Source of the DNA: Octopus vulgaris
Lineage: Eukaryota
Assembly: GCA_951406725.2 (NCBI GenBank)
Contig: OX597842.1
Span: 21,204,001-21,268,000, forward strand
Reading direction: 5' to 3'
Length of the DNA stretch: 64,000 nt
Below, piece by piece: positions 3,975-34,326 of the stretch. A model generated the notes under the pieces. The model was not told the DNA's origin. It was given only the letters and a program-made list of their open reading frames with translations, and searched no databases. The translations under genes were made by a program, and so were the position numbers. The first letter of the stretch is position 1. Every line of letters begins with the position of its first letter.

Positions 3975-4058
3975 ATGGATGTAAATAAGATTATAAACAA
4001 CATTCTGGATGGGGACTTTGAAGATGTCAAACAACTTATCAAAGAAAATCCTGAAACG
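3975..4058 (+). CDS. First identifiable coding exon, MDVNKIINNILDGDFEDVKQLIKENPET (ankyrin N-cap)
   Basis: Pyrimidine tract and AG at 3971-3972, ATG at 3975, donor gtaagt at 4059. GDFEDVKQLI matches an ankyrin-type helix. An upstream exon probably exists. Confidence 0.8.
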
Positions 4059-4209
4059 GTAAGTTTACTTTATATTGCTTCCTCAATGTTGAATGTTTGT
4101 TTATTATTTTATACACAATATTAAATGTTCCTAAATAACCAGATATATTTGTCCATAATATTTCATTTCTTTCTTTACTTCTTTCCTCTAATCCTCATCA
4201 TTGTCACTT

Positions 4210-5000
4210 TTTATAAACATTCAACCAGACAATGAGGTATGCCAGAATTGATGGAATGTGAGTGAGAGAGAAACCCATCCTCACACACTGCAATGGAGTA
4301 TTCTGGCAGGAAATATTCAGTCCAAGAGATGGGGGACAGATTGACCCAATAGATAAATGATGACTTTGTCAAGAAATTCTCTTGCCATACACAGTTGAAG
4401 GTTTTACCGATGTCAAGGGCTACACTATTTCTTTTGCAGAAGTTGCAAACATAACCAAAACACTGGGGAGTCATGTAGGAATCAGATCCCTGCTTGAACC
4501 GGCTTTATGGAACTGTACTGGGGCTCATTGAATAGAGAAAGATACCCAAAGGGACAAATATGATGGTTGTTTATGACTTTTTACTTCATAATTGAAATAT
4601 TGGAAGTTAGAATGACTGGCTGGTAGTCAGCAGATAGGACACTATCAGCAAGAATTATAAAACAGGGCTTCTCTAAGAGAGTAATGCTACCCTTGCGTAG
4701 GGATTGCGAAGAATTTTATAAGGACCAGGGAGCCAAGGCGGCTGTGGTGGTACAAATATATAAAACTCAATGTGTAGTTGAGTTTGGATCAGAGAACCAT
4801 CATGATTAGGGAGTGGTGGGTGGAATGATTCTGTAAAATCTATAGAGATACTCTAGGTAAGAGACCAGAAAATGTGGCTTTTAATTTGGGAGGGAAGACA
4901 GCTGACAAACGGTGAAATGCAGAAAAAACATCCTTTAATTTCTTGATGAACATCATACATGTATTTCAATGGTGGGTGAATATCTGCCAGTTAGTGAGGG
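4210..5000 (-). mobile_element. Old LINE RT remnant
   Basis: VALDIGKTFNCVW and INSGIP remnants. Confidence 0.55.
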
Positions 5001-6536
5001 TAGGTGTTTTCCTCAAGGATAAGTTGATAGTGCTGTAATACAGTTGTGTATGAACCACTCACACCTTTTTAAATATTGTATGGCTACAAACTAATGTAAG
5101 CCCTGATACTGCTGCCGCATTTAGGCTCAAAATTCTGATCACTGCTTTCATAATATTTCTTATTTTCTCCATTGTTTCTTTTCATTTGTGTCTACTTTTC
5201 CATAGTTGCTCATATTTAGTTGTGATTGGTGTCGTTCCAAAGATGTCACAGATGTCTAATTACAAGTAATTACTTTGTAATAGATTCAGTGACTAACATA
5301 AATAGATTTTCAATCTTTTCCTTGAGCTTAAGCATGAACTAAACAGTCTTTATTTACCTGTTACACCTTGATTTACCTATGCTCTACACCTTTCTTGTAG
5401 ATTTGCTTTCATTCTTTTCCAAGTAGATCTCATGTTGCTGTTTCGCCAGACATATGACATCTGAAGATCCATGCTTCATTTCAAACATCCTGTTCTTCTC
5501 TCACCATCATTTAAATCTTCTTCATCATTATAGCATTAAATGAAAGTGCTACTATGCCAGGCATCAGTGATTACACAGTGTAGAATTTCATGAGCTTTAC
5601 CAGGGAATATAAAACTAAAACCCTGTCTGACATATTTAGAATCTACACAATTATTTCTGAGGGTTTTGACCCTTTATAGCTCTTCCCCTGTTCAGTTACT
5701 TTATACACCATCTTATGGTCTAATCTCAGTAGTTGGTTAGTGTAGATGGTTTCTCTTATTTACCTGTGCGTCTCCTATCAGATACCAAGTTTGAAATCTT
5801 GTCAGTGTTCTCTTCAATTCATAATTGATATCATACATACCAGTAATAAACTGGGAGATTTTCTCAACTGATTTTTTCCCCCTAAGACAGACATCTTATG
5901 TTTCATAAGAAAGACCCTTCCATCTACCATGAAATGGTATATTTGTACTGATTTCCTTCGATATTGCTCTGTCCACTTCTATGAAAATACAGAAAGTACA
6001 AGTCATGTAAAGAAAGACACTAATGACCATCTAAAGTGCATGCCATCGTTCACGGGATAGAACACTAAAAGACAGAAAAGGGAGCAGTAAAAGAACCATA
6101 AAAAGGAAAGGGTGTATAGGAACCAGTGTTTCTGAATTACAGAAAGTGTGGTGTTTTTGAAGGATACAGCTAACAACCAATGTAGATAGTTTATTCCGTA
6201 CCCTGACAATTCTGAGCATAAAATATTGTTTTCGATATCATGGAAACTGGAATGATTTTTTTATTTATTTTATAAGCATGTCTGAGAGTGGTAACGATAT
6301 TAAATTCCAGAAGTGGTCAAATTTGTTATTGGAAGATGAGGGATAATCTTGTGGGATCAAGTGAGTTGCTAGAAATGACAAAATTCTGTGTCGATGCATG
6401 GAGAAGCAATACATTTAAGAAATGATAAGTGATTGAGTGAGGCTAATTGTATGGTTGTACATCTATAGACAGCTTCCAGTAGATTGGCATTCTGGACAAA
6501 ATGAGCATACCAGATTGGAGACATAACCTATACATG

Positions 6537-6830
6537 ATGGCTAACCCCCTCGTTATCGAGTATGGCCATTGCACGAAACTTAACTGTTATTGATGCTGTG
6601 ATTGAATGTGACTTTTTAGCCCAGCTAAAGATCTACAATGTCTTGTACAAAATTGGCAACTAAGACCTTTACTGGTAATAGCCGGCTGTAGTTGTAACTG
6701 GGCTTCATGTACCTTTGCATGTCGTTTAAGTCCTCCTGCCGAATTACACTCTCTTCCACATGCCTGACAGATATGATTAGTATGGCACGTTACACCACCA
6801 CCAGTGGCCAGGTTGTCACTCATCTGTCTC
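6537..6830 (-). mobile_element. RTE LINE extreme 3' end with two C2H2-like fingers
   Basis: CQACGRECNSAGGLKRHAKVH and CQFCTRHCRSLAGLKSH, followed by a 3' terminus shared with 7045-7090. Confidence 0.65.
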
Positions 6831-7489
6831 GCTTTATGACTACGAAGATGACTCGTGAGTCATCCTATACATACATGCATACATATCAGCATATATATAA
6901 CAAAGTATGGATATAGTAATCTAATTAGGTAACAATGTCTAAGTTAAATGTTTGTGAGAATTTGAAGTTGTAGCTTTATTGTACTTAGACCAATGGTGGG
7001 ACTTGAATGACTGGAACTATACATACATACATATATATATATGGTGGCTGCCCCCTCGTTATCGAGTATGGTCATTGTATGAAGCTTAATCAATGTTGTT
7101 ATCGTGCAATGCCTGTGCAAGAAGATTTTTTTTAAAGTGAGGAAAGGCTGTGCACTGAGTCAATCCCACTCACTAAGCAACAGCAGCCATAATCCGAAAA
7201 GAAGAACAAGTCAACATCATCGGTAACCACTGAGCTGCAGGTTTTATGCCGGAGTTATCCCAGTTACCTGAGTTACCTTCGCCTAGAAGGATGCCCTAAC
7301 AAAGGCTAGGAGTCCTTCACTCCCAATGGTTTAACCATGCGATCGGGTATTCAGTCCGATTATTTCTATGTTCCCGTGCATGATACAGCCTTAAGACTTT
7401 TATTGACTCTCAAGAGTTCCTCCACCCTTACATACATACATACATACATACATGTGTGTGTGTGTATGTATATGTGTATATGTATATGA

Positions 7490-7610
7490 AGGCGCATGAC
7501 TCAATGGTTAGGGCAACAGGTTCACAATCAGGAGATAGTGAGTTTGATTCCCAGTCTGGGCTGTGTGTTGTATTCTTCAGCAAGACATTTTATTTCATGT
7601 TGCACACTGG
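7490..7610 (+). mobile_element. Truncated tRNA-derived SINE
   Basis: Homologous to the head of 54480-54805. Confidence 0.65.
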
Positions 7611-7780
7611 TATGTGTGTGTGTGTATCTTTCTTTCTTCATCTTTCATATCCCTTTCTTTCACTCCAGCATCTTCTTTACTCTCTCTTCTCTTCTCTCCT
7701 TTCTCTCTCTCTCTATTCTTCCCTCCTCTCTCTCTATCTCCTTTGATATATTTTATATATCTTCTCTTTCTTCTCTTCAG

Positions 7781-7932
7781 GTCAACCAAATAAACTCACA
7801 CAGTAAAACTTTCTTAATGGCAGCTTGTGCACAGGGCAGCACAAGTCTAATAGCCTTCTTGATAGAATCTGGAGCCAATATAGACATGAGTGACAAAGGC
7901 AAGAATACAGCATTGCATTATGCTGTGAAAAG
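7781..7932 (+). CDS. Ankyrin exon VNQINSHSKTFLMAACAQGSTSLIAFLIESGANIDMSDKGKNTALHYAVK
   Basis: ttctcttcag acceptor, gtaagg donor; ankyrin consensus (GANID..D..NTALHYAV). Confidence 0.92.
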
Positions 7933-8991
7933 GTAAGGCTTGAATTAATTAAAATCTTCAGATCTGCTTTTGTTTTGAAATTTTTTGCAATTCCAGACTA
8001 TTTGAATATCCAAAGATACCATAATAGTGGCAGTGTGACACGATAACAACATGATAGTAATAACCAAATAACATCTTTTTCTCATTTTCTCCATGAATCC
8101 TCTTCATTGAATCACAATAATCTTTTTCGTTATTTTTTGTCAAAACAGATATGATTAGTATGGTGCGTTACACCACCACCAGTGGCCAGGTTGTCACTCA
8201 TCTGTCTCGCTTTATGACTACGAAGATGACTCGTGAGTCATCCTATACATACATACATGCATACATATCAGTATATATATAACAAAGTATGGAGATATTC
8301 TTTGAGAGCCAACAGTTCTTAAGATTGACTCATTGTGATTCAGTGTCTTCTCTTCATATGGATTATGGGGAGAGCAATCAATTTTTCTCCAAAGAAAATG
8401 TTATTTGAGATCTAAAGCAACAAGAAAGATTCTCTAGCTTGTTTTGACAGTAAATAATCTGTAAATTTCTTACAGAAATTATTTCTCACCTCCATCTGCA
8501 ACTCACTCAACACATTTTGAGATCTATTATATTTTGAATTGTGCTTCATAAGGTCATCTCTGGACAATAAAACATGTTTTGAAGTTCTTGTTAGTTTCTA
8601 TAGCTTCTGCAGTCACAAATTGTTCCAGAATTTTACACAAACACACACACACCATCATTGTCATCGAATGTTCCTTTTCCATGCTGGCATGGGTAGGAGG
8701 GTTTGATAGGAACAGACAAGTCAGAAGACCACACCAAACACTACTGTCTGTTTAGGTTTGGTTTCTATGGCTGGACGACCTTCCTAACACCAACCACTTT
8801 GCAGAGTGTACTGGATGCCTTTTACATGCCATCCGAACCAGTGAGGTCACCAATTAATTGCGAGACAAAGACCTCTCAACTGGTTGAGGTCGTGAGGTGG
8901 GGGAGCTAATATTGCTGGAGAGAAAGGTGTCTTGCATTAGAAGAGGGACATGGCTCCTTCAGATGGAGAAGACAGAGGAGGGAAACACTAG

Positions 8992-9496
8992 GTTAAAATC
9001 TTGTGTTTGGCCCAAGCAAAGAAAAAAGCGAAAAAATAGTGCAATAGGTGTGAAACAACATGTAGTAAACGAATATGAAAAAAAAAATATGGCGAACGGG
9101 AGACGACTCGGAAAATTAAAATCTCACCACTTCCCCGTTTGTCGGCGAATTTTTTGTTCTTCATTTTCGTTTTTTACATATTATTTTACACCCGGTACTC
9201 CACTTTTGTTCAATTTTTGTGACGGGGCGGCTGGGTGAGGTGCGGACTCGGATGATTCACACGATCTGGTAACCCCACTCGACAACCGGTCCCAAAAATG
9301 AAAACAAGAAGTGTAATAGGTGTAAAACAACATGTAGTTTTCGGATCCTGTGAAATTGATCGTGTGAATTTTCCGAGTCGTCTCCACCACCCCTCGTTCG
9401 CCAGCGTATTTTTTTTTTTTACATATTCGTTTACTACATGTTATTTTACACCTATTGCACAATTTTTTTTGCTCGAGTCAAACACTAGAGTTTAAC
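8992..9496. mobile_element. Palindromic MITE with ~125-bp TIRs, in intron 2
   Basis: gttaaaatcttgtgtttggcccaagc..gagacgactcggaaaatt is mirrored by aattttccgagtcgtctc..gctcgagtcaaacactagagtttaac. Confidence 0.8.
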
Positions 9497-9512
9497 TTAT
9501 ACACACACACAA

Positions 9513-9545
<33 letters not shown>

Positions 9546-10097
9546 TATATAATAAATATTTGTGTGTTTATATATTCATTTATGTGTGTTATATGACCGC
9601 CATACTTTACTGTTTCTTTTGGCGGTAAAAATACGCCTCGTTGCCCTTAACAACAAACTTTCTCTTGCATAGTCTGTTGCTATGACAACATTACATTTGC
9701 AGACGTAGTTTTGCTGCCAATTACGACGTGCTGCTGTTGTTGTTTTAGATTGATGAGAAATCTGCTATCAATTAGTTTGTCTATAATTTTCAGACATTCC
9801 ATCTTTCGCAAAAGGATTACAATATATTTTTCAATGTATACCAAATATGTAGATACTAACAACGGTACTTAATCCTTGTTTTGTATTGTACACTCGCTGG
9901 GATAAAAATATTTATATTTTATACCCTCACCTATTAATATGTGTATACACACACACGTACACATTTGTTTACTGTGTATTAATGATTATACGTATTTCAG
10001 TGGCTCATATTTCTCTGTCTGTCTGTCTCTCTATATACATACATATATATACACATACACATATACACCTATATAATATTATTGACTTTGACATTTC

Positions 10098-10131
<34 letters not shown>

Positions 10132-10135
<4 letters not shown>

Positions 10136-10854
10136 CATACCTCCACAACTGGGCCCCACGACGAATTTGTTTCCTTATAACTTTTAGACAAATGGATATT
10201 TTTTAATGAAATTTCTTTGACAAAAATGCTTCAGATGATGAAGATTCCAATTACATTGGAAATTGTTGTAAAAACAAATTTTCAAACGTTGAGGAGTTGA
10301 CTTTCTCAAAATTCACCCAAATCCGTTTTGTTTTTCTATAACTTTCAGAAAAGTGGATATTTTGTTTCTGTGAAAATTTCTACAAATCCCTTTGAAATGG
10401 TGTAGATTAGGATTATATCAGTATTTAACATGAAAAAACTTTAAAAATTTGATGATTTCGCACAGATACATACTGACACACATCACGGTTATTTTCCCAA
10501 AGTTCATCTTTTTATTTTCTGTTTTGTGTCAGTGTATATCTGTGCGAATCCACCAATTTTTATAATTTTCTTCATTAAATTCCGATATAATCGAAATCTT
10601 CACCATCTGAAACGGTTTTATTGAAAATTTCATTTGAAAATATCTATTTTTTTGGAAAGAAAGCCGACTCGGGTGAACTTTCCTAAATTTCTCTCTCCAC
10701 CCACCGAAAAGTTTTTTCTCACAACAAATTCCGATATAATTGGAATATTTGCCATCTGAATGATATTTGTGAAAGAAATTTCATTGAAAAACATCCATTT
10801 TTCTAGAAGTTACTAGGAAACATTCGTCTGGGGCACATTTGTGTAGGTTTGCCT
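10132..10854. mobile_element. Diverged foldback MITE with internally repeated arms, inserted in (TA)n in intron 2
   Basis: aggcatacctccacaactgggcccc.. is mirrored by ..ggggcacatttgtgtaggtttgcct. Confidence 0.75.
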
Positions 10855-10871
10855 TTACATACATACATATT

Positions 10872-10916
<45 letters not shown>

Positions 10917-11024
10917 GAGGCTGTAGTATACATAGGTTTTTATGCATTTAATGGAACACGAGTGTATATTTAATGTAATTATTAAGTGAATGTGATGTTT
11001 TATGTTTGTTTTTCTTCCTTTCAG

Positions 11025-11181
11025 CCACCGAACTGATGTTGTCGCCTTCTTAGTCTCCAGTGGAGCAAATGTTAATAAGCATAACTCATGGGGCGACACA
11101 CCTCTACATCTGGCTGTGGAGAAGAACTATGAAGATGTAGTCAAAGTCCTGTTAAATAGCAAAGAAAATAACAATTTACAG
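11025..11181 (+). CDS. Ankyrin exon HRTDVVAFLVSSGANVNKHNSWGDTPLHLAVEKNYEDVVKVLLNSKENNNLQ
   Basis: ttcctttcag acceptor, gtcagc donor; GDTPLHLA motif; phase 2 to 0. Confidence 0.93.
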
Positions 11182-11644
11182 GTCAGCGAATATATATATA
11201 TATATATGTGTCTGTGTGTATAATGATATGTATATTGGTTTGTGTTATATGTATATGAAACAGTTTATATTTATATTTTTTTAATTAAAAAATTTTCTTC
11301 AGCTCACACAGACCTGTACATATATACACAAATATACACACACATAAACGCATATATACACAAAAATGCATAAACAAATGATCAGTGAAGATATAAAACA
11401 CGTATGTATATGTAGGTATTTATGTATATATGTATGTGCGAGAGTGTATATATATATATATATATATATATGCATACACATATGTGTGTGTGTATAGATA
11501 CATTATTAATCTCATTTATTTTTCCCTCACCTTCATTCCACCTGTTTAAATTAATCTGATTCTGTTTTTCTGACATTTTTCCTTTTTTACCTTTTTCCCC
11601 CAATAAACACCATCTTTAATGTCTTTATTGTTTATCTTTTTTAG

Positions 11645-11901
11645 GTTAATCTGCGAAATATTTTGGGTTGCATAGCTCTCCATGTTGCCTGTCTCTTTGG
11701 ACACATAAAGGTTGTTGAACTTCTCCTGCAACAGAATGGCACGGATGTTAATGCTGTGCAGGAAGATGGTTGGACAGCTCTCCATGTTGCCTGTCACTTT
11801 GGACACAGAAAGGTTGTTGAACTTCTCCTGCAACAGAATGGCATCGATGCCAATAAGGTGAACCTCAAGGGTGACACTCCTCTACATCAGGCAGTTCGAA
11901 A
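11645..11901 (+). CDS. Ankyrin exon containing a recent 102-nt internal tandem duplication (ALHVACxFGHxKVVELLLQQNG twice)
   Basis: tttttag acceptor, gtaagt donor; GWTALHVA and GDTPLHQA motifs. Confidence 0.93.
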
Positions 11902-12719
11902 GTAAGTCCCCAATGGATTTGGATTATCCAAATCTGTTTCTTTAATGTTTGTTTTCTTGTTTTGAGTCATTCATGTCATAATCCCACCATGGGTCGTCAT
12001 GCTTCACCCCTCTCTCTCTCACACACTCTAATGACACTGTAATCTAACTTCATTAATTAATCATCATAATTATTGTTGTTGTTGTTGTTACCTGACTGGA
12101 TTCTTTACTTCATCTCATCCTTCGTTACCTCAACGTTACAGGTTCAAATCCTCTCCCTTCTTCCTTTCATTCCATGTACCCCCCCTTCTCTTGTAATTTT
12201 CCTCTTTCCTCTGGCCCTGGGCTAAATGCAGAATCATCCCCTTACTTTGACCCGTTTGTGTTCCAAGTTCAACTCCTGGGGTCAAAATCTGTACCAGTAA
12301 TATCCAGGGCTTCATTTAATAAATTGTCCTCCTCTTTACTCCTGTTCTTGTGTCTGATTACTGTTGGAAAATATTCAGATAAAATTTATAAGTGTTGATA
12401 TCTGGACGGTTTCCTAGTCTTCTGATTGTTTATGGAATATGCGGTGTAATTTTTAATTATGTATCTTATGCAAATAACGTACATCTTCTTTACGCTGGTT
12501 ATGGTAAATCTGTGTTTTGAGTTTATACCCTTCTTATAAATTTTATCTGAATATTTTCCAACCTTTGCCTTTTATTAACCCTTACGTCTTTCTACCCTTT
12601 TAGGCCCCTCTTTTTTGTATATTACGAGTTACCCTTCCAACCCCTTTCGTTGTATTAACAATTAATATTATCTTAATTTTAATGATTTTTAATACTATTT
12701 TAGTTAACAGTATGTATGT

Positions 12720-14135
12720 GTATGTTGTTGGCATCGTTTTTGTCTCAGGAGACAATGGAGTTGCGCATAAAATAGTCTAGTCCGGCTTTTACATTTCATG
12801 TCCTGATACATTTCCTGCTGTGGCTGTGTAGTCCTGTCCTGGACAAACACTCCCTCTGGCAGGTACTGCAAATGTAGCGAAGACTGTTCCTGGCTGGTTG
12901 TAGTGTCATAGTTTCTTGTTGACTTCTTTTCTTGTCTTTCCATTTCTCCTCTCTCTCTCTGTCACTCCTTTGTATTCCCTCTTTTACGGTACGTCCCCAA
13001 TCTCCACGGTTGCTGGCAATTGCTTCCCAACTGCTAATATTGATGTTGCAGGCCTTCATGTCCCTTTTGCAAACATCCTTGTAACGTAAGAACAGTCTAC
13101 CCACAGACCTAGTACCCCTAGCAAGCTCTCCGTAGAGTATGTCCTTGGGGATTCTACCATCTTTCATACGGCTAACATGCCCAAGCCATCTCATACGTCT
13201 TTGTGTGAGGAGTGCAAACATGCTTGGTATTCCTGCTTGCTTGAGGACATCTTTGTTGAGGATATGATTCTGCCATTTGATGCGGAGGATTTTCCGGAGG
13301 TAGCGCAGGTGAAAGATGTTTAGGCGACGCTCTTGGCGTGTGTATAGCGTCCAAGTCTCACTTCCATACAGTAGAGTGCTAAGTACACATGCCTGGTAGA
13401 TCTTCATTTTCGTGGTCTTAGTCAGCTTATTGTTGTCCCATGCCCGTTTGGAGAGTTGGGCCATCGCAGCAGCTGCCTTGCCAATGCGTATATTGAGCTC
13501 AACATCAAGGGATAGGTTGTAGGTGACGGTAGAGCCAAGATAGGTAAACTTCTCCACCTCCTGTAATCTGTGGTCTCCAATATGTATGTTTGGGATGTCC
13601 GATATAGCCTGACCCATGATGTTGGCCTTCTTAAGTCTGATAGCTAAGCCAAAGTTGTTACATGCTTGCTCAAAACAGTTAATGAGCCTTTGGAGGGCTT
13701 CTTCTGTGTGTGATACCAGAGTGGCATCATCAGCAAATAGCATCTCCTTGATCAGGACGTTTCTGATTTTGGTCTTGGCACGCAGGCGCGAGAGATTGAA
13801 CAGTTTCCCGTCACTTCTACTGTGCAGAAACACTCCATCATCTGATGTCTGAAAGGCATGTGAGAGCAAGAGCGAGAAGAAAATGCCAAATAATGTAGGA
13901 GTGAGGACACAACCTTGCTTTACCCTGCTTTTCAATTGGAAGGTGGCTGATGTTGAACCATTGTGCTGTATGGTGCCTTGCATATCATCATGGAAAGACT
14001 TGATGATCCTCAGCAGCTTTGGTGGACATCCGATTTTTTGGAGCAGGATGAAGAGGCCTTTTCTACTTACCAAGTCAAAGGCCTTTGTTAGATCAATGAA
14101 GGCCATATATAGTGGCATTTTCTGCTCTCTATGTG
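12720..14135 (-). mobile_element. 5'-truncated RTE (BovB-like) LINE with intact 440-aa RT/C-terminal ORF 12796-14118, antisense in intron 4
   Basis: FIDLTKAFD, VKQGCVL, LFADD, YLGS, LLYGSETW motifs; C-terminal CxxC..HxxxC finger; short 3' UTR. Confidence 0.95.
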
Positions 14136-14334
14136 TATGTATATATATACATATATGTGTGCGTGGTTGTTTTCGGGTATATGTATTTGTTGATATATAT
14201 ATATATATATATATGGATATATACGTATGTAGTTATGTATGTAAGCATGTATGTGTGTATGTAAGCTTGTATTTTCTGTTTTTTGGTTTATCTATGTATA
14301 TATGTGTAAGCGCACATATACGTGTGTATGTAAC

Positions 14335-14658
14335 GAAGACAATTGAAATTCAAATGTTCCAATCAATCCTATTGAGCTTTCAATCTTAAATTATTTCTAA
14401 ACTTACTACTTAATATATATCACCGTCAAAAATCTGACTTGTATGCATGTACACTTCTGGATTTTGCTATGATGTAAATCAATATTTTTCATTTTATATG
14501 TATTTGCTGATCTATAATGTTTTGCATTATACTGTATTATTATTGTTGTTATTGTTATTATGTTGCTATTTCACTATATTATGCTGTTGATTTTTTCCAC
14601 CTAATATGTACTGTGAACCACGTGATGCACATATTGTTTTACTGGTATTATTATTATT

Positions 14659-14689
<31 letters not shown>

Positions 14690-15350
14690 TTAATAGAGAT
14701 AATAGTGATGGTAATAGTAATGATAATAATGGTAATATTAATGGCATTTTGTAACTTAATATAATGAACTCTTGACTTTGTATATGTACATTTGCATATG
14801 GATATGTGTATGTTTGTATATTGTAATATTCTAATATATTGATTTGACTAAATGTAACCTTGTATATATGTATGTATATTATTATGTATATACGTGTATA
14901 TATATATAGGAGCATGGGTATATGCACTTATATGTATGTGTATATTATATATTATGTGTATGTACCCATTCTTGTATGGGTGTACCTTCTCTGATATTCA
15001 TATTTAGATTGTACTTTATAATCTCTGAAGAAGCCTTGGGATATATTTGTATGCGTCTCATTTATAACCACATATTAACTTATCACACCTGGCTAATATG
15101 AGCATAATGAGATACTCATATCTACATGGCTGAAACAGCTGTAAGATGTAGTTTATATTTATATTTATTTAGATTTATTTATACATATTGTACTTATTGT
15201 ATCATATTACTCATTGATGTGCATTGTTTTGTTCTGTACTATTATGTTTGACCTTGATGTTCATATGTGGTGGGTTTATAAATTGTGATTGGGTATTATC
15301 TGGTAGTTGATTATTGATTAAGGTGTATTTCTCCATTTTCTTATTTTGTA
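14335..15350 (+). mobile_element. Non-coding hammerhead-bearing (Penelope-like, non-autonomous) element, copy 1
   Basis: Colinear homology to the reverse complement of 43085-44100; ends ctccattttcttattttgta followed by (TA)n. Confidence 0.65.
15021..15147 (+). ncRNA. Type I minimal hammerhead ribozyme with long stem II (GUA site)
   Basis: atct-CTGAAGA-agcc..(gtctcatt/aatgagat)..ggct-GAAA-CAGCTG-TA-agat. Confidence 0.8.
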
Positions 15351-15398
15351 TACATATATATGTATGTATGTATGTATTTGTGTATGTATGTATGTGTG

Positions 15399-15431
<33 letters not shown>

Positions 15432-15528
15432 GTGTGTGTGTGTATATATATATATTATATTAAATTAGAGACAAAACCACTATTAGGCAAATCTGATTTT
15501 TCCCTGTAAGTTTGGATTTATTCCCTAA

Positions 15529-16130
<602 letters not shown>

Positions 16131-16253: not shown

Positions 16254-16290
16254 GAGGCACTATGATGTGGTTGCTTCAATGCTGGTCCAG
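16254..16290 (+). CDS. 37-nt exon RHYDVVASMLVQ completing an ankyrin repeat
   Basis: Long pyrimidine tract plus cag, gttagt donor. It supplies the phase 2 to 0 link needed between the flanking exons and fits the ankyrin second helix. Confidence 0.85.
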
Positions 16291-16733: not shown

Positions 16734-16796
<63 letters not shown>

Positions 16797-18799: not shown

Positions 18800-18832
<33 letters not shown>

Positions 18833-19358: not shown

Positions 19359-19571
19359 GATTCAGTGAAACTGGATATTGAGAACAATCGTAAAAGAACA
19401 CCCTTACTGGACGCCATGTATGCAGCCCACCTCGGAATAGTCCATAAACTTATTATACATGGTGCGAACATGAATGCCGTCGACAATGATGGCAATAATT
19501 GTTTGCACCTTTCCATAATAAAGAAAGGGATGTTTCATTCTGAGGTGGAACACATTTACATTTTAGATAAG
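19359..19571 (+). CDS. Ankyrin exon DSVKLDIENNRKRTPLLDAMYAAHLGIVHKLIIHGANMNAVDNDGNNCLHLSIIKKGMFHSEVEHIYILDK
   Basis: ccacaaag acceptor, gtaagt donor; ankyrin consensus. Confidence 0.92.
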
Positions 19572-21355: not shown

Positions 21356-21534
21356 TGCTGTGCTAAGCTTGGGTTGCCGATCAAAAAGAGGCTCTCTGGT
21401 GTAGGAGTCGCTAGCTATCTATCCCACCAGGGGGCCAACTTGTACAGGAAAAATAATAAGAATGTAGCTCCATTGGACCTCATTGGGGATGCAGATTTGA
21501 AAGAAAAATTTAAAGTATTATTCCCCCCACCACA
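21356..21534 (+). CDS. Last ankyrin exon CCAKLGLPIKKRLSGVGVASYLSHQGANLYRKNNKNVAPLDLIGDADLKEKFKVLFPPP
   Basis: tttgtag acceptor, gtaagt donor. A.YL...GA.L..KN....PLDL resembles the terminal ankyrin of Mind bomb proteins. Confidence 0.88.
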
Positions 21535-22243: not shown

Positions 22244-22275
<32 letters not shown>

Positions 22276-23789: not shown

Positions 23790-25650
23790 ATAGATATTCT
23801 GGACAGGATGGGGATTCCAGATTGGAAATGTAAACTCTAAGTGTAGACGTATGATAGCCAGGCATAATTTTAAACTGATAACTTGACAAATTGACGGGCA
23901 GAGGTTTTTACTGAGCAATACTTTGATATTTCTGATGATTTTTAGAAATGTGGTTCATGCATTACACATCATTGTTGACATTAATGTCACGGTCAAGTTC
24001 ACCTGCAGACTTTTGAAGTTTGCTGTTCTGGAGAGAGTTGGTAAATTTTTGAATTTTCATTCCAAAGTGTATAGTGGTGCACCATTCTATGGCCAGCTTG
24101 AGTTTGCAATCAGCAGTGCATTGCTGCATTGTATCCAGGTCAGATTGAAGAAAGGATCTATAGCAGATAGTTGGCATGTATTTAGCTGATACATAGAAGG
24201 AGCAAGAGAAAACCAAGAGTAGTTCCTTGTAGGTCTTCTGTGTTGGGTGCAGAATGATAGCTTAGTGTTGTGACTCTGTCTTTTCAACTGAGAATGTAAG
24301 TATTTTAAGCAGTTATATAATTTAGTCCTCGCACCCATTCCAGACAGTTGTGCCGTAATTGATCACTGTGGCATGGAATTAAAGACTTTGGTGAAGTTGA
24401 TAGAGATAATATCCACCCATGAACCACCATCTGTGATGAAATTCAATGCAGCAACAGTTAGGGATAAATCGAAATGGTTGGAGTTTGAATAAACTTATGA
24501 GGGTTCCAGATGTTCCAAAATGTCTTCCTGTAGATCCATTAATTCTGTGAGACTGACTGGATGGTAATCAACAGGGGATGTCTGGTCACTCCCTTTTTGA
24601 ACGGGGGAGAATACTGGCAACTTTCCATTAAACTGGGCTAAGTGTGAATTAGAAGAGGACAAAAAGCTGGTGCAGTAGAAAAAGGGTGCACCCTTTGAGA
24701 AGCAGATGAATAACACCACCAAGACAAGAGGAAGCATAATTGCACATATGCTTCAATTAGCATTGCGATATTGCAGAATTCAACAGGTTTTATGGAATTT
24801 GATCTCAGTAGCAGTGAAAACGGTACATTTGTCACTCCTTTAATATGGCAGGGTACCATGTTGCACCTTCTTCTTTTATCCCCTGTTCTTTTATCACGTC
24901 CAGCATCTCATCGATATTTCCTGGCAGTCTCTCACATATTCAGGCTTCTAAAACGTTTGTATGGCACCGACACTTATTCATGAATTAAGGATGGATGTGC
25001 TGAAGGTTAGTCTTGACATCTCCAGAATTGTAAAGTCGAAGCCAGTCAGAGAACTATACCTCAGTACAGTCGGAGTTCCAGGAAAACAAAGCAGTTTGGA
25101 AGTTATGGTGGCTTTTCTTTCTATCCATTAGAAATATTTTTGCAAGATTGGTGTATGATCAGAGTCACCTAAGGGTTCATCACTATTGAGGCTGATAATT
25201 TCAGGAGCAGTGGTAAATAGCAGATCGAAAGTGTTGTTAACTCTTATGGGAGAGAGACTGCTTGGGATTAGTTTGAATCTAACATTAAATGAAGGAAATC
25301 TGTTGTGGCCAGTGGAAGATTTCCTAATCAATATTGGGTAATTGAAATCACAAGTATGAGAACATAGGTAACCATTTTCATAGATGCAGCTCTAAAAAGT
25401 TTTGAGGATGGTAAATGTTGATGTGCTTTTATGTCGCAGAAAAATTCCTCCTGTGACTGGTTTAAATCTTCACAAGCAATTTCTGAAAAGCTTGAGCAAG
25501 CATAGACCATCGCACCACCTCCAAGGTAATGAAAGAGGTCTTTGTGAAAGAAAATGTAGCCAGCCATGCTAAAAACACCATTGCACAGTAAAGAATGTGT
25601 CCAGGTTTAACAAATGAGATTGGAATCAGTACTTTTAACTTAGGAATCAA
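23790..25650 (-). mobile_element. Old CR1/L2-like LINE remnant (endonuclease + RT)
   Basis: FDLLFT, PLGDSDH, YHPVSLT and DFTKVF-like remnants with many disruptions. Confidence 0.65.
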
Positions 25651-26275
25651 AAATAGGGAACTTTATTGCATAAACTGTGGGTATTTTTAAACAATAATTT
25701 GTATCTCGATTTAAATCTGTCATGGTTCATGGAAGAGGATATTCTCAGACCAGTTTGCATCCCTTTTTCATCTGGTATTGAGTCATGATTTAAGGGATCT
25801 ACAATATGTAACTTCAGGTGTGTATCAGGTGGTGAATGACGAAGAGCTCAATTTATCACACCTGTCCTTATAAGAAGCTAAACAGTATGCACATAGCTCA
25901 GTAGAAGGTAAATCTAACTCGTTTGGGTTTTGATCCAATCAACTGAGGCAAATAAAATAGTTTTGGAGAAACACATCTGAAGTTGATAAGATGTAGATCA
26001 ATGAATATGGACTCACCTATAACAAGGGGCAGGTTTGTATGCAGGGCAAACCTAGACTGAAGTGTTTTGCTAAAGAACTTTACACATCGCCTTGTTCAGG
26101 AATTGAAGCCGCAATTTTACTGTGTGAGTCCAAAAGCCTAACAACTTAGCCATGCACCTCACTCTGGTCAGTCTGGTGTTTCATAATATTCTGTACTGTA
26201 AACATTAAACAAACATGTAATATTTGTTAGAAATGAATGTTATAAGGTGGGATGTGTTTTATGTTTTTTCCACAG

Positions 26276-26400
26276 ATGTATGCTTTGTGAAGTGAATAAA
26301 GCCAGCATGGAGTTACAACCCTGTGCACATACTGTTTTATGTGAAGATTGTAGCAAAATTCAACTTAAAACATGTATAGAAAGCAAAAGAAGGAGAGTTG
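26276..26400 (+). CDS. RING-HC (IAP/MIB-type) exon CMLCEVNKASMELQPCAHTVLCEDCSKIQLKTCIESKRRRV; 8th zinc ligand absent
   Basis: ttttttccacag acceptor, gtaaga donor; pattern C-x2-C-x11-C-x-H-x3-C-x2-C-x7-C-x2-S. Confidence 0.88.
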
Positions 26401-27653
26401 GTAAGAATATGATTTGATGATCTGTCTGTTTGTCACATGACATTATGGAATGGAATAATGTTGTATCAACCCAGATCTGTCATAATCTGACAGACGTATG
26501 ATAAAAAATGTCCCAGGTGTCTTTTCTCTTTGATAGTATATCCATGACTACACCCACTGAATATTGTCTTTATCCAAGTAGGAAACCTGTCCCACATCAA
26601 AAGAGTACTGTCTGCAACATAAGACTAATACGTTTTACTGAAATATAAATGAAATATCAATAAATCTCCAAGGTCCCATCAGTAAACATCAACTTTTTAT
26701 ATTCAGTTGTCAGCTTTTATATGAGGTTAATGATTTATAAGTACCTTGGGAAACTGATAATTAAGGACAACAGTACTTCCTACAACATCACAGTCAGCTT
26801 TGTAATGTAAGAATTTCAATGACAAAATCTCAACTGAGAGTTTAAGACTCTTAGCGAGTCTTATATATTCTTGAGAATGAATTCTAGTGTCCCATTTCAG
26901 ATATAACTCCTTTGCAATAATGTGTAGATAAACAGTTTTAAGTTAAGGAGGTTTTATACAAATGTAATGTTTCAGGATACCTCTTATCACTTTCTGCTCC
27001 ACCTGTGTAGAACTAATCATTGCTCACCTGGAAAAAGAAAAAGCTGCTTATTAATGAGGATGAATGACATTGAAATATCTTCAGATCTTTCCTGAATCAG
27101 GTGGTATTCTGGTGAAGTGTGATGTGGGCAGTTAAAATTAAAGATTACCAACTGTAACATATAAAAATGAGGGCTGGGGTATGTTTATCCTTCCTGAACC
27201 AATGTGTCATGCCTTTGTGGCCAGATCTTTGAAGACCAGATTGGTTGACACTGGAATTTAGCAGAAAATGAGAAGAATATTGGTTAGTGAAGGTTCGAGA
27301 TGAGAGGACAATGGCATGTCATATGACCAGCACAGACATAACAAAGGAAAGACAAAATTAAGAGAAAAAGAGTGTTATGAAGGGATAAATAAGTGAGAGA
27401 ATTTCAGAATCCTTAGATTAGTATATAGGATGTCTTAAGAGAAAGATGAGATTTAGAAAGGTTTGCCTATTTTGTTGTGGTTCTAAGTATTGAACTATTA
27501 TATAGTAACAGCTTAGAAAGTGTTGACTGAAAGCATAGTGGTCACCAATTGACTATTGATGATATGAATGCCTTACAAAAATGGAATATAGATTATTAAA
27601 AGAGACAAAGAAATTTTACTATGAAGTATAAAACTTTGAAATGCTTATTTCAG

Positions 27654-27704
27654 TGTGTCCAAAGTGTACAGAAAAAGCAGTCAAGACGGTTGTAGAATCT
27701 GTTG
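27654..27704 (+). CDS. Mini-exon A (51 nt) VCPKCTEKAVKTVVESV
   Basis: ttatttcag / gtgagt; phase 1-1. Confidence 0.82.
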
Positions 27705-27819
27705 GTGAGTATAAAATATCTGTAATTGATTTCTATAAATTTTACCTTCACCTGAGATATATTATTTGTGTGAATGACTGAGAACAGGTTCCATTCTTAA
27801 TTTCCAATTCTTATTTCAG

Positions 27820-27855
27820 AATGTCCAAAGTGTAAAGAAAAAGTAGAATCTTTTG
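27820..27855 (+). CDS. Mini-exon B (36 nt) ECPKCKEKVESF
   Basis: ttatttcag / gtgagt; phase 1-1; in-frame 15-nt deletion relative to A. Confidence 0.78.
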
Positions 27856-27970
27856 GTGAGTATAAAATAACTGTAATTGATTTCTATAAATTTTACCTTC
27901 ACCTGAAATATATTATTTGTGTGAATGTCTGAGTACAGGTTCCATTCTTAATTTCCAATTCTTATTTCAG

Positions 27971-28021
27971 TGTGTCCAAAGTCTGAAGAAAAAGGAGTCC
28001 AGACGGTTGCAGAATCTGTTG
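27971..28021 (+). CDS. Mini-exon C (51 nt) VCPKSEEKGVQTVAESV
   Basis: ttatttcag / gtgagt; phase 1-1. Confidence 0.78.
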
Positions 28022-28136
28022 GTGAGTATAGAATAACTGTAATTGATTTCTATAAATTTTACCTTCACCTGAGATATATTATTTGTGTGAATGACTGAGA
28101 ACATGTTCCATTCTTAATTTCCAATTCTTATTTCAG

Positions 28137-28187
28137 TGTGTCCAAAGTCTGAAGAAAAAGCATTCAAGACGGTTGCAGAATCTGTTG
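28137..28187 (+). CDS. Mini-exon D (51 nt) VCPKSEEKAFKTVAESV
   Basis: ttatttcag / gtgagt; phase 1-1. Confidence 0.78.
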
Positions 28188-28970
28188 GTGAGTATAAAAT
28201 AACTGTAATTGATTTCTATAAATTTTACCTTCACCTGAGATATATTATTTGTGTGAATGACTGAGAACAGGTTCCATTGTTACATTTCTTTCAAATGGTT
28301 AGCGATAAAAGTAATTCTATTCGCTACCTACAAATGCAAGAATATCCAATAAAGGGGTTTTATAGAAATATGGAAACATGAGACACAGGAAAAATGTCTT
28401 TCACGATGAGGCCAAAATACAAAAGATAAAATATAAACCCTGAAGCTGTTCTCTCCCCATAATGAGATACATTCACTTTTCTTTCATCTCATTGTTGTCT
28501 CTCTCTCCTTCCCTGTTTCTTCCTTCATCTCTCTCTCTCTCTCTCTATGCATCTACATGTAGCAGCCTCTGTACTTTCCAGTCGTGTAACAACATGAATT
28601 GTATTTAAAATATTGATATTACAGAAATTTAATAAAATGTCCAGCAGTGTTGGCCCTGTTGCTAAAATGGTTAAATTAGAAAAAACAAACAAACAATAGA
28701 GTTAATATTGTCTTTTGAATGAAGGAAGAAAAACATTTTGTTGTTTAATGGTAAACAGGTGAGTTAATGACAGTGTTTGTTTGTTGTACATTTTCAATAA
28801 GTTTACTGATTATTGTTGTTGATGTTCTTGTTGAACAAGATGGTTAAGTTGAAAGCTTACAAGTGTGATCACCCTGTCTTTTTTTTTTTACTGTTAGTAA
28901 ATCTATCATTACATCCATTAAACGATGTCTTTGTCCAAGTAAGAAGCTTTGGTCTGCTGCTGAGACAATT

Positions 28971-29008
<38 letters not shown>

Positions 29009-30497
29009 TAAGATGGACACTGGTTGCAAGATACAATACAATCGATGTTATTGTCCTCATCATTTACAGTCTGCTCTCCTTGCTTCCATGTAATGGATGG
29101 GTAATCACTGTCCAAGTCAGTTCTTATTCAGAGTTACTGTCCCCCTTGACTGCTTGAGAAACACATCTCCCTTAAACATTCCACCTTTTCTATGGTGGGA
29201 TGCCCTCCCCCCAACACCAACCACTTCATAAAGAGTCCTGAGTACATTTTAATGTGGCACAAGCACTAGAAAGATTTTCATGTGTCCAACATTGAAACTG
29301 GAATAGCTGTAGGTTGCACACTATCAGTCACTTAGTTTGTGCTTGTTATGGGGATCGGCAGATTTATGAGAAGAAATTACTCAGGCGAAATCATCTAAGA
29401 AAACATTCATGGATGACATAAAAATGCTAACAAGAGATCCAAAGTATATGCAATCAGTCCAAGATAGATTGGATGGACTAATTAATTGCTCAAGAATGCT
29501 GTTTGAAACAAATAATGAATGCATTCTGACATTTGTGAAAGGTCAACAGAAGCAAGTGAAGTTCAAAATAGCAGGAGAAATGATGCGAAAGGTTAAAGAG
29601 TAACTTGTAAAACGTTTTGGACTGTGGTAGATGATCTCATTGTCCGATAAGAGTAGAGGCATTGATGTCATTGCAGAAACCGAGGATGGGCAATAAGCAT
29701 TTGCCAAGTCAAAACTTCTGGGCAAAAACAAGATTTGGTGCTTGAAGTTTGATCTATATCACCTTCTTGATAATATATTCTTAAATATCACTTCTTTTGT
29801 ACCATTTCAGATATTTTTTCCTTTGCAATAATCTGTGTATGAACATTTGCATGTTGTTAAAGATGTTTTGTGCAAGTATACAGTGTTTTAGGATACTTGC
29901 TATCACTTTCTGTTTCACCTGTGTAGAACTTATCATTGCTCATCAGGAAAGAAAAGCATTTCATTAAGGAGTCCTTAAATATTTCCTGAATCAGATGAAA
30001 TTCTGGTGAACTGTGAGTTGCATTGTTTAAAATTAAAGATTAAAAGCAGCAACGTTTGACAAAGATAACAGGTGTGACATGAGTTTGTGTCAAGGTCATT
30101 GATGACCAGCTTGGTTGACATCAGAATTAAGCAAAAGAAGAGGGGAATGTTGATTAGTGAAGTCCAGTGGTGAGGGGACAATGCCATGTCATAGGTTTAG
30201 AATGGATACAAGAGATACATGTGATCATTAAATAAGATGATTGCAACGTTGTTAGATTAAGTAGGATGTCTTAATAGAAAAAGGAGGCTTAGGAAGGTCA
30301 GTCTATTTTATTATGGGCCTAAATATTGAGCCATTATATAGGACCACGGTAGAAAGTATAAAACTATCAACCAAACCTATAGTGGTCAGCAGTTGTCCAT
30401 TGATGATAGGAATGTCTTACAATAATAAAATATAAACCATTAACAGAGATCAGGAAATTGTGCTATGAAGTGTAAAATTTGGAAATATTTATTTCAG

Positions 30498-30569
30498 ATT
30501 CTGTAATGGTAGAGGAGATTCATCTTCATAGGGTGTCCCAAAAGTTGGCAGGTAAATGGATGGAACTTG
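30498..30569 (+). CDS. Death domain N-terminal exon DSVMVEEIHLHRVSQKLAGKWMEL
   Basis: ttatttcag / gtgagt. L..V...L...W..L matches death-domain helices 1-2 and joins in frame to GRELGI. Confidence 0.85.
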
Positions 30570-31557
30570 GTGAGTATAAAATACCGAATTTCTATAAATT
30601 TTGCTTTCAGCTAAACTTTTGTTTGTTTGAATGACTGAGAACCGATTCCATTCCTAATTTCCAATTGAAAGTTTAGCTATAAAGTAAAGCTATCACTGAA
30701 ATTTCATAAAATATCTATGGACGTCAGCACGGTTGTAAAATGTATAAATTAGGTCCAGTAGAGTTAATATTATCGTTTGTAAAAGGGGACTCAAAAATAT
30801 TGTTGTTTAAGAGTAAACAGGTGAATTAATGACAATGTTTTTGCTTGTTTACACTTTTAGTAAGTTTACTAGTAGAGTGTTGTTGTTGATGTTTATTTTG
30901 GCAGATATCTGCCTTAATCTGGCAGAATTAAGGGGAAAGGGTTCCAGATGTGCCATCGCTCTTTCTCTTGGGTGAAGAGGACCACATTATCAAATGTAAC
31001 CTTTTTAAAATGAGAGTGTGCATTGTGTGGAACATGTTGTCATCTCTCCCCTGGCCAGTCTGTTTTTCTATATTTATTGTAATTCTTTAGTCCCAGGTCA
31101 ACATATATTTCCTGTCTCTATCGAAGACAGGCCCCATTGTTGATTGTGTTCATGGCTGGATTGAACTCAGCATTGTAAGTTAATGAAACACTCATTTATA
31201 TTAGAAAAAAAGAATCTCAACAGAAAATTCAAACTCAACTTGATCTTGTTTCTCAATTGAAATCATTTCACTCTCCTTTACATTACAAATGTCACGTGGA
31301 AAGGCATGAACATCACAATATCCCATTTCCCTTTCTCCGACAGTTTAACACAACATAAAATATCATTTATACAATGCTCCTATTATTTACAGCAATGTCT
31401 TCTACCTCCCTATGGTACCTATATACATCTAGATAGAATGAAGCATAGAGAAATGTCTTTACCAGGTACATTGAGCGGTGCTGGGGATTAGATTTGAACC
31501 TTTGATCCCTGACTCAAGGGATCATGACAATATCCCTTGAGTCAGCTGATAGAAACC

Positions 31558-32430
31558 ATCATCTTCATCATCATTTGATGTCTGTTTTCCATGCTGGCAT
31601 GGGTTGGACTGTTTGACTGAGGTCTGGAGAGCCAGTGGCTGCACCAGGCTCCAATCTGATCTGGCAGAGTTTCTACAGCTGGATGCCCTTCCTAATGCCA
31701 ACCACTCCGAGAGTGTAGTGGCTGCTTTTTATGTGTCACCAGTATAGGAGCCAGTCAGGTGGACCTAGCATCAGTCATGTTCGGATGGCCTTTTTACGTG
31801 CCACCAACACAAGGAGTCAGTCAGATGACACTGGCATCGACTACATTTGGATGATGCCTTTTATGTGCCACCAGAACGGGGGCTAGTCATGGGGCACTGG
31901 CCACAGCTGCAATTTTGGTTTTACTTGACTCAACAGGTCTTCTCAAGCATATCATGTCACCCGATGCATTAAGGATACTCTTAAATGGGCCGGACATGCA
32001 ACACTGGCATCAGCCATGGCTGCGATCTCACTTTAGTTGCTGGGTCTTCTCAATCACAGCATATTTCCAAAGGTCTCGGTCTCCTGCCATTGCCTCTGTG
32101 AGGCCCAATGTTCAAAGACCATGCTTCACCATCTCATTCCATGTCTTCCTGGGTCTACCTCTTCCACAGCTTCGTTCTACAGTTAGGGAGTGGCACTTCC
32201 TCACACAGATGTCCTAATCCATACATAACACGTGACCATACCAGCACAGTCGTCTCTCTTGCACACCACATTTGATGCTTCTTATGTCCAACTTTCCTCT
32301 CAGGGTGTTTACACTGTGTTGTGTATGCACACAGACATTCCACATCCAGCGGATCATACTACCTTCATTTCTGTCAAGTCTATGCATGTCCTCAGCAGTC
32401 ATGGCCCATGTTTCACTACCATGTAGCATG
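31558..32430 (-). mobile_element. RTE-type LINE 3' fragment, same family, in the last intron
   Basis: MLHGSETW..CWYGHV; same 3' UTR. Confidence 0.88.
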
Positions 32431-34120
32431 GCAGTTCACACTCAGAAATGATTTATCTAAATTAAGAAAGGACATCATCTACAACATTGCCAGCTTGCTA
32501 TACCTCTGGGTGTCATACAAAATATACCAGTCATATACTGGGATAAAATGAATCCACTAACACCAGGTCCGTTATCATCATCACCTTACATCCATTTTTC
32601 TAAGTTTGTAATGGTCAGACGACTTCTCCCAGAGTTGTTGTGGTCCTTTGTCCAGTTTGATCACTTGTTTCTTTCCACTTGAATTCCAGGAACTTCTTTA
32701 CCCAGATTTCATCTGCCATGTCCCTTCTATATCTATACCATTATCTTTTTTCTTGTACACTATCACAGATTCTTCTGAGATCCAGTTATTTGGCTCCAAG
32801 ATTTCAACACATTAACATTACACTTCTAGAGATGTCTGCTCACCTCATTTCCTGGCAGTTTCCATTGTATCTTTCACATTCTATGTAACATTGCATGAGG
32901 TGTATTTGTAAAGTGCAATCTCTCCCCCATATGGAGACAGAATCCCTTAGTTGCCAGTAGACATAACAACTCCCTGTACATTTTTCATCTCATTTTCCTT
33001 CTAACTACTGTGCTTTCAGAATAGTTTCCTCTACTTCTAATTCTGTCCTTTAGGTAACAGAAACTATCAACTATGTCTTTCATACTTGTTCCTATGAACT
33101 ATTCCTGTACACATACAAAGTCCTTCCTCAGCCCTAACCTTAACCTGCCTCCTTGTAAACTTGCTTGTTTGTGAATGCAGTGATTCTATCAGGACCCAAG
33201 TGTTGTAGGTGTATGGTGTAGATGTTGGTAAAACTCTTCTCATTGCTTTATTTACTCTAGGGCCTCTCCTGTATTAGATTCTTTGAAATTGTGGCCTTGA
33301 TCCAGTGAAAGAAGTTCTTGTTATAAGTCATGAATCCAAAAACCTTAAGCCAGTGCCCTCTATAATATGTGATATTTACCTAACAGTATTATATTTTTAC
33401 TTTGGGGTGGTTGAAATCATTCAGGTACACAATCCCCACTTTTGAGATATTTCTGAATGTTGATAATTTTTAAATATTTATTAATCATAGGTGGAAAGAC
33501 ATCGCAAATGACTATTTCAGGCATTGATCACAGGACGTTATCAAACGACTGAGATTGTATTCCTCCAAAGAGTCTCTGGAGTAACGTTACTCAACAAGGT
33601 GTGCAGGCTGGAGATTTGGGGCCTCTCCAGGTCAAGTGACTGCTTCTCTGCATTGAGAATTCACAGCTCCAGTACTCCTGGCATGTGATTAAAATGTCAC
33701 AGGAAAGAACCACAAGAGGGATGAAGGAGGTGCCTGAAGACTCTTCCCCTACAACTCTCCTATGAATAGAGGGCAGAGAAAATGGACGGATGGATGAAAT
33801 TATCTGTTGGTGGTCTTTGTTAATTCTTTAGGCTCTCATACACTGCTACCCACACAAACACTTCTCCTGCCAGTTGTTCACCAGACATTTTCTCATGTGT
33901 AATTTTCAATTCTTTAAAATATTATTCTCCTTCTCCAGCCTTTATTTCAACTTGTTTGATATTTTTGTCAACATCTTTAGAAATAGATGACAATGTCTTC
34001 TAATTTCCCTGTTTCTTAAGTATTTCTCATTCTTCTATTCACATAATTTCTTTGTCCTAATTAATACAGGTTTTATATTATCGTTAATGCTGTTGCAATT
34101 ATTTCTTATTTCTTTTGCAG

Positions 34121-34326
34121 GAAGGGAATTAGGAATTCGACAAAATGACCTGGAAATCATCAGGCATGACTATCCTCAAAGCGTTAGGGAACAAGGCTTC
34201 CAGATGCTGTTCAAATGGCATCAAAGTACTGATCCAGAGAAACGTACACTTCAAATATTAAAAGCAGCTCTTAAGGAAACTGAATGTTATGATGCACTCA
34301 AATGTTTATCATCAGAATTCAATTGA
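34121..34326 (+). CDS. Terminal exon, death domain C-terminal part GRELGIRQNDLEIIRHDYPQSVREQGFQMLFKWHQSTDPEKRTLQILKAALKETECYDALKCLSSEFN*
   Basis: tcttttgcag acceptor; death-domain consensus (W..LGR.LG....L..I....P....EQ...ML..W......T...L..AL); stop TGA 34324-34326. Confidence 0.92.

Follow-up and report, generated by a model that had tools for sequence, protein, structure and literature searches.

What is a gene that joins the ankyrin repeats and a RING of a Mind bomb protein to a C-terminal death domain? Such a gene lies at 3975-34326 on the forward strand of a 64,000-nucleotide stretch of Octopus vulgaris DNA (GCA_951406725.2, contig OX597842.1, positions 21,204,001 to 21,268,000), which we call the window and whose first letter is position 1. 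The original prediction, made from the letters of the window, took it for a sensor or adaptor E3 ligase, possibly from an expanded, fast-evolving immune family. We find that its ankyrin-RING part descends from MIB2, as documented by shared introns, a tree and a fold match, that it is one of a family of some 80 to 85 octopus loci, and that the central ankyrin repeats of this family carry an excess of amino-acid change on their predicted binding face. An IMD/RIP-like adaptor gene is the likely source of the death-domain exons, and it is doubtful that the family members are ligases.

The gene comprises 14 exons and 13 GT-AG introns, which give a single frame of 556 amino acids (aa) with one terminal stop. 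The spliced product is identical to P0024 (CAI9743652.1), a public Octopus vulgaris protein that comes from an automated model and is named 'MIB2-like'. Two AlphaFold2 models (mean predicted local distance difference test score, pLDDT, 87 and 84) place a confidently predicted ankyrin stack of about eight canonical repeats plus caps at residues 1-355, followed by a linker that is disordered and, at about 470-555, a domain of six helices. Pfam recognizes ankyrin repeats in exons 2, 3, 4 and 6, zf-C3HC4_3 in exon 8 (28.8 bits against a cut-off of 27) and Death in exon 11 (36.6 bits; 47.8 over the whole protein; cut-off 22.6); with this score and six helices at a mean pLDDT of about 90, the C-terminal domain is a death domain of the PF00531 type. 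The predicted frame of about eight ankyrin repeats, a RING and a death domain is therefore borne out by splicing, Pfam and AlphaFold2, except that the RING is not complete, since exon 8 supplies six of the eight zinc ligands.

The front half retains the exon structure of octopus MIB2 (P0063, at contig C26:2.514-2.568 Mb of genome G000, to which all contig positions below refer). From exon 1 to exon 9 there are eight introns, seven of which match those of MIB2 in position and phase, the exception being the intron between exons 4 and 5. Exon 1 (coding part 3975..4058, aa 1-28; this and all other exons on the forward strand) contains the start codon and the N-terminal ankyrin cap; its donor is that of the MIB2 intron after aa 452, and MD(V/I) stands at the place equivalent to its start methionine in the paralogs P0040, P0043, P0046, P0047, P0056 and P0175. 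Exon 2 (7781..7932, aa 29-78), with ankyrin repeats found by Pfam, has the bounds and phases of the MIB2 exon for aa 453-502, and exon 3 (11025..11181, aa 79-131), a further Pfam ankyrin repeat, is the counterpart of the exon for aa 503-554. Exon 4 (11645..11901, aa 132-216) is, by Pfam and paralog comparison, a variable array of 34-aa ankyrin units, and exon 5 (16254..16290, aa 217-229) is a 37-nucleotide ankyrin helix exon also present in P0024 and in O. sinensis models. The MIB2-type ankyrin exon 6 (19359..19571, aa 230-300) is 46% identical to the MIB2 exon for aa 649-718, with equal phases, and exon 7 (21356..21534, aa 301-359), a MIB2-specific degenerate ankyrin end, is 51% identical to its MIB2 exon. 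Exon 8 (26276..26400, aa 360-401) is, by Pfam and paralog alignment, the homolog of MIB2 RING1, whose last Cys-x-x-Cys is missing because of an 18-nucleotide deletion relative to paralogs. In a tree of the exon 6-8 region, which used 39 of 54 prepared rows (15 were dropped) and whose bootstrap is not fully settled, 16 family rows form a clade (100/99) that is sister to two Octopus MIB2 proteins (98/85); P0074 falls just outside this group, and other molluscan MIB2 proteins fall further out. The best fold match is the ankyrin domain of MIB1 (8v0e; Z 33.2, root-mean-square deviation 2.7, 327 residues aligned over query residues 1-358). Exons 6-8 match the MIB2 gene on C26, and the MIB gene on C13 gave no match to them in the 90 kb taken, possibly not the whole gene.

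Both ends of MIB2 are gone. No Mib-Herc2, ZZ or REP sequence was found by tblastn in the window or in the 100 kb upstream, and P0024 has no Pfam match to these domains. The absence of such exons, originally noted for the window, thus extends well beyond it, and the idea that upstream MIB exons lie just outside was rejected. The genome has ten Mib-Herc2 matches, none of them on the contig of this gene, and the window has no RING2 exon downstream. RING1 of MIB2 is followed by a phase-1 intron and then by the final exon, which encodes a coiled coil and RING2; in the family, exons 9-11 replace this exon at the same phase-1 intron. A death domain was listed in none of 102 matches to the MIB2 exon. 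By its defining features the gene is not a MIB family member, though it is derived from MIB2. In human MIB1, activity is confined to the terminal ccRING3, RING1-2 is inactive, and deletion of ANK-RING1-2 leaves Notch signalling intact (bioRxiv 2024.03.01.582834). In human MIB2, which acts on RIPK1 and cFLIP in TNF signalling, the second RING is needed for ubiquitylation and the first is dispensable, and cFLIP is bound by the N-terminal zinc-finger region (PMC7815719). What the family kept is therefore the dispensable part, and neither working end survives in it. An exon-by-exon account of its origin can be given: it reuses the portion that human MIB1 can spare in Notch signalling, with a signalling exon in place of the catalytic one.

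The replacement consists of four mini-exons and the two exons of the death domain. The mini-exons (27654..28187; 9a 27654-27704, 9b 27820-27855, 9c 27971-28021, 9d 28137-28187) are phase-1 exons in a 166-bp tandem repeat and encode the flexible linker, aa 402-464. As their flanks show, they are shortened copies of exon 10, intron flanks included; the internal duplications of the original prediction are present, now recognized as skippable copies of the first death-domain exon. Splice joints were taken from contigs of four public runs from four studies, placed on 26200-34480 at 93% likeness; no type is recorded for these runs, which we presume to be RNA, and at this likeness some joints may come from paralogs. 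Exon 8 is joined to 9a in two of the four runs and exon 10 to exon 11 in all four; in between, 9a is joined to 9b, 9c or 9d, 9b and 9c to 9d, and 9b, 9c and 9d to exon 10. No single contig of the four runs covers RING through death domain, and the link between them, which the original prediction presupposed, is made by stepwise joints at the predicted sites. Separate evidence for a spliced family transcript comes from an intronless, stop-bearing copy on contig C1 (L089), which spans exon 6 to the death domain as a processed pseudogene would. C1 carries two tandem arrays of stop-bearing copies, at 216.93-216.97 Mb (L089) and at 102.71-102.73 Mb. The O. sinensis ortholog has 21 NCBI isoform models, which differ in the choice among the four mini-exons and between two exon-10 acceptors. 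Such skipping could set the length of the tether (0-63 aa) between sensor and death domain.

Exon 10 (30498..30569, aa 465-488) encodes death domain helices 1-2 and has the phases of an exon of the IMD/RIP-like gene and similar intron flanks; exon 11 (34121..34326, aa 489-556) encodes helices 2-6 and the stop and holds the Pfam Death match. A profile of 21 death-domain exons, at first with one adaptor exon included, was run over 1.84 billion representatives. The best-scoring single-domain matches belong to the family itself and to a kinase-less adaptor found in Octopus and Argonauta; among 150 matches, 20 are named, 18 from octopods and two being multi-death-domain proteins (Branchiostoma, Patiria). 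When the profile was built without the adaptor exon, the kinase-less adaptors still reached 57-72 bits per domain, compared with at most 48 for domains outside the octopod group. The adaptor genes are two tandem, kinase-less genes at C26:12.798-12.836 Mb (L083-L087) with a C-terminal death domain, and their homologs in O. bimaculoides are named 'RIPK1'. In adaptor genes and family alike, the death domain is split at the same Gly-Arg codon in phase 1. The intron flanks of the adaptor genes are more like those of exon 10 than are the flanks of exons 1-8, and only 0 and 15 of 2000 shuffles reach as high a likeness.

Judged by sequence features, the C26 adaptors look like octopus IMD. In P0189, P0312 and P0204, the proposed donor, Death is the sole Pfam family above the cut-off and there is no kinase. 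P0189 has an Asp followed by Ala-Val-Pro at aa 12-15 and again at 90-93, a match to the IAP-binding consensus as a motif only; none of 97 other profile matches has it in the first 120 aa. A RHIM-like stretch in the adaptors was picked out by a loose pattern of our own, with no Pfam RHIM match. The best solved match of the Argonauta adaptor is the death domain of RIPK1, and exon 11 starts with a basic residue that aligns with the conserved Arg of RIPK1 and is replaced in many members. IMD-like proteins have been reported from mussels. IMD has also been reported as not found in molluscs (PMC9835746). The adaptors have the layout of Drosophila IMD, which binds FADD through its death domain and whose IAP-binding motif is exposed by a caspase site (PMC9496462). 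The octopus genome has a FADD-like gene, with a DED and a death domain, intronless and 185 aa long (C26:2.42 Mb, L162:1489-2046); it lies about 90 kb from MIB2, on the contig shared with the IMD-like genes. With both an IMD-like adaptor and a FADD-like gene found, the pathway is testable. In O. bimaculoides, a leucine-rich repeat adhesion G protein-coupled receptor (P0199 / P0308) ends in a family-type death domain and linker, and one such receptor is listed with a Death domain, without comment, in PMC6408891; the fusion may be real, or a merged gene model.

How large is the family, and how does it vary? Exon 11 has at least 135 genome matches (150 of 154 candidates scored) and exon 7 has 126. 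Two C1 pseudogene arrays (23 and 19 matches) were taken out before the two exons were paired. Among the remaining 103 exon-7 matches, 85 have a death-domain exon on the same strand within 60 kb downstream, 83 of these within 30 kb, as against three upstream. Neither exon contains a stop in 79 of the 85 paired loci, and C29 and C31 together account for 62 of the 85. The count rests on pairs of exon 7 and a death-domain exon, not on full gene models; it bears out the suspected expansion and leaves no room for a single-copy gene. Repeat number differs among paralogs, with open frames around exon 4 from about 60 to more than 1000 aa, and each of 24 genes has between 0 and 5 mini-exons, with two types of RING and two of death domain occurring in all four combinations. 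MIB2 duplicates that keep the RING2 exon are found at C20:45.04, C27:36.36, C30:3.17, C29:22.41 and C26:0.92-1.34 Mb, none of them with a Mib-Herc2 match; the copy at C26:1.3 Mb retains REP exons, and the C29 copy has stops. Three such duplicates fall inside the family clade in a 26-row tree. Its starred branches require the death-domain label to have changed at least twice, so that gain, loss or exchange of the tail took place at this one intron on more than one occasion. Gene structure and tree together mark the tail as a swappable cassette, RING2 or death domain.

As far as we searched, the architecture is lineage-restricted, in agreement with the original prediction. All 28 matches of one homolog search are from Octopus, with members in three Octopus species, and the named death-domain matches are mostly octopod. 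The ESM Atlas holds MIB-like, XBAT-like and ANKDD1-like clusters, none listed with ankyrin repeats, RING and death domain together. The openly accessible literature that we searched, which leaves subscription journals and supplements outside its scope, holds no description of the family; the accessible parts of PMC10970066, PMC6522055, PMC10844198, PMC9334734 and 10.1101/010942 contain nothing on it.

For the variable array we compared repeats drawn from the 30 best exon-4 loci: of 95, four were set aside for a codon deletion, and 89 unique ones remained. Selection was measured by pairwise counts without a site model or a gene-conversion model. Diversity peaks at repeat positions 13, 3, 14, 5, 1 and 10; positions 2, 3, 5, 13 and 14 are those randomised in libraries of designed ankyrin repeat proteins (DARPins). 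In 30 disjoint close pairs, the proportion of nonsynonymous differences (pN) at these five binding-face positions is 0.187 versus a synonymous proportion (pS) of 0.051 at the same sites (Fisher p 0.003), with an overall pS of 0.025 and a framework pN of 0.024. Bootstrapped over 40 pairs, pN/pS is 2.7 (1.4-7.5) for the five positions and 3.8 (2.1-9.8) for a set of seven; counting single-base codon changes only, the ratios are 2.0 (five), 2.7 (seven) and 1.3 (framework). Exon 6 and the RING show mild purifying selection (pN/pS 0.4-0.8), and exon 7 gives 1.0-2.3 among close copies and about 0.45 at depth. By these counts, the fast evolution that had been proposed takes the form of excess amino-acid change at predicted binding-face codons, so that the family has, like NLRs, a variable repeat domain under diversifying selection.

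Several features of the surroundings may be recorded here. Some 63 kb upstream of the start of the gene lies the end of a further family member on the same strand (C29:21.13-21.145 Mb), flanked by C2H2 zinc-finger sequence (C29:21.10-21.16 Mb, L005-L010). Within intron 4, on the reverse strand (12799-14232), a 478-aa frame resembles by eye a reverse transcriptase of the long interspersed nuclear element type, and shorter pieces of this kind lie near 32217-32435, 47586-48401 and 59712-60278. Exon 1 is closely preceded by a 400-bp direct duplication (97%; 17-420 and 3386-3786); a 361-bp tandem repeat spans 37304-39481, and a telomere-like repeat inside an inverted pair spans 34929-35156. Elsewhere in the genome, at C9:9.565-9.586 Mb (L164), the unit of a 262-bp tandem repeat holds most of exon 6 of a family gene.

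What, then, is the family for? On balance, we think that it encodes variable intracellular receptors, in which the ankyrin repeats and RING1 of MIB2 are combined with a death domain likely of IMD/RIP type and signal through death-domain contacts. The ankyrin face would bind foreign or altered proteins; on ligand binding, the death domains would cluster and assemble, and the cluster could recruit FADD or an IMD-like adaptor, leading to activation of caspase-8 or NF-kB. The immune role, the ligands and the partners are what we infer from this arrangement. NACHT has at least two genome matches (25 candidates), both on other contigs; with so few, a family such as this could fill the NLR role. More tentatively, and with somewhat less than even confidence, we suggest that octopuses built their own intracellular receptor repertoire by joining the part of IMD that signals to the inert central portion of MIB2: some 80 genes with a DARPin-like face, a ligase or death-domain tail swapped at one intron, and a tether tuned by combinatorial splicing.

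A number of observations weigh against this proposal. Pfam finds no NACHT or NB-ARC switch in P0024 or P0046, and without a switch of the NACHT type the gating of activation is left unexplained. In the death-domain tree, 3 of 36 branches are starred, and the tree does not settle the direction of donation; rooting the donor by it was dropped because its branches are too poorly supported, and we regard the adaptor as donor because IMD is the more widespread architecture. Positions 1 and 10 were added to the seven-position set after the data had been seen. The framework of the repeats is near neutral at close range (bootstrapped pN/pS 1.0, 0.67-2.1, 40 pairs), so relaxed constraint and patchy gene conversion contribute to the variation. 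For the death domain, pN/pS is 0.95-1.3 among close paralogs and about 0.45 at depth; the lack of clear purifying selection among close copies fits poorly with a fixed downstream partner. Finally, 32 of 39 family proteins keep all eight RING ligands, and many intact RINGs end in CPxCR, features for which a dead domain would have no use.

The fast change of the death domain could also mean that these proteins are decoys or brakes, which start no signal and instead compete for FADD- or IMD-type complexes or soak up pathogen effectors aimed at death domains or MIB2. The replacement in many members of the basic residue equivalent to the RIPK1 Arg at the start of exon 11, and the loss of the catalytic and substrate-binding parts of MIB2, would suit such a role. 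We nevertheless consider it unlikely, since selection is strongest on the ankyrin face and not on the death domain, and a plain brake has no need of about 80 variable copies.

The intact RINGs raise another reading, that the family consists of true ubiquitin ligases, in which the retained RING regained activity, the ankyrin repeats choose variable substrates, and clustering of death domains substitutes for the lost coiled-coil dimer. In addition to the conserved ligands, RING pN/pS is 0.6-0.7, several subfamilies end in CPxCR, a motif of active RINGs, and relatives that end in the catalytic RING2 tail are interspersed among death-domain members. Against it, the first RING is not needed in human MIB2 (PMC7815719), RING1-2 is inactive in human MIB1 (bioRxiv 2024.03.01.582834), and this copy lacks two zinc ligands, the loss of the last pair being shared by the O. 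sinensis ortholog. A Cys-Pro-Lys-Cys in a mini-exon appeared to complete the broken RING in the first AlphaFold2 model only (pLDDT about 80 at 415-433). That alignment had put the last ligands of paralogs under exon 9b, and with a family-only alignment residues 395-465 are disordered, so the completion is unsupported: it vanished once the alignment did not impose it. We therefore find the ligase reading rather improbable, and the E3 label of the original prediction is doubtful: the retained RING is the first, non-catalytic one of MIB2 and the catalytic exon has been replaced. Most likely the RING has a structural or restraining role and no catalytic one, and this applies most of all to the truncated RING of this copy.

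It is least probable of all that the family is a by-product of unstable, repeat-rich chromosome regions or serves non-immune recognition (neural or reproductive), for although the near-neutral framework, the stop-bearing copies, tandem pseudogene arrays and exon-derived satellite, and the zinc-finger genes beside the cluster might suggest as much, the two exons checked are free of stops in 79 of the 85 paired loci, purifying selection is seen at depth (0.38-0.55), change is concentrated on one protein face, and members occur in three Octopus species.

Intracellular immune recognition is poorly known in cephalopods, and this large, diversifying family, whose members now stand in databases under the misleading names 'MIB2-like' or 'ankyrin-3-like', offers a concrete candidate for that role. 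It can be set beside four known systems. With MIB2, its sister on the tree, it shares the ankyrin stack, the first RING and seven introns; it lacks the Mib-Herc2/ZZ/REP substrate-binding region and the coiled coil-RING2, has added a variable ankyrin exon and a death domain, and numbers about 80 copies rather than one. With IMD/RIPK1-type adaptors it shares the death domain and its two-exon layout, with ankyrin repeats and a RING in place of the caspase-site/IAP-binding motif and the RHIM-like segment. Ankyrin repeats followed by a death domain are also found in ankyrins, DAPK and NF-kB p100/p105. The same order is seen in ANKDD1A/B; these and their kin have no RING and are not known to descend from MIB2 or to have expanded. 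A further parallel is that of fungal NLRs with highly conserved ankyrin repeats, in which positive selection acts on the concave ankyrin face (PMC4986451): variation in repeat number, shuffling and selection on the ankyrin face are alike in the two, whereas the octopus family has no NACHT/NB-ARC switch, carries its effector domain at the C-terminus and is of unrelated origin.

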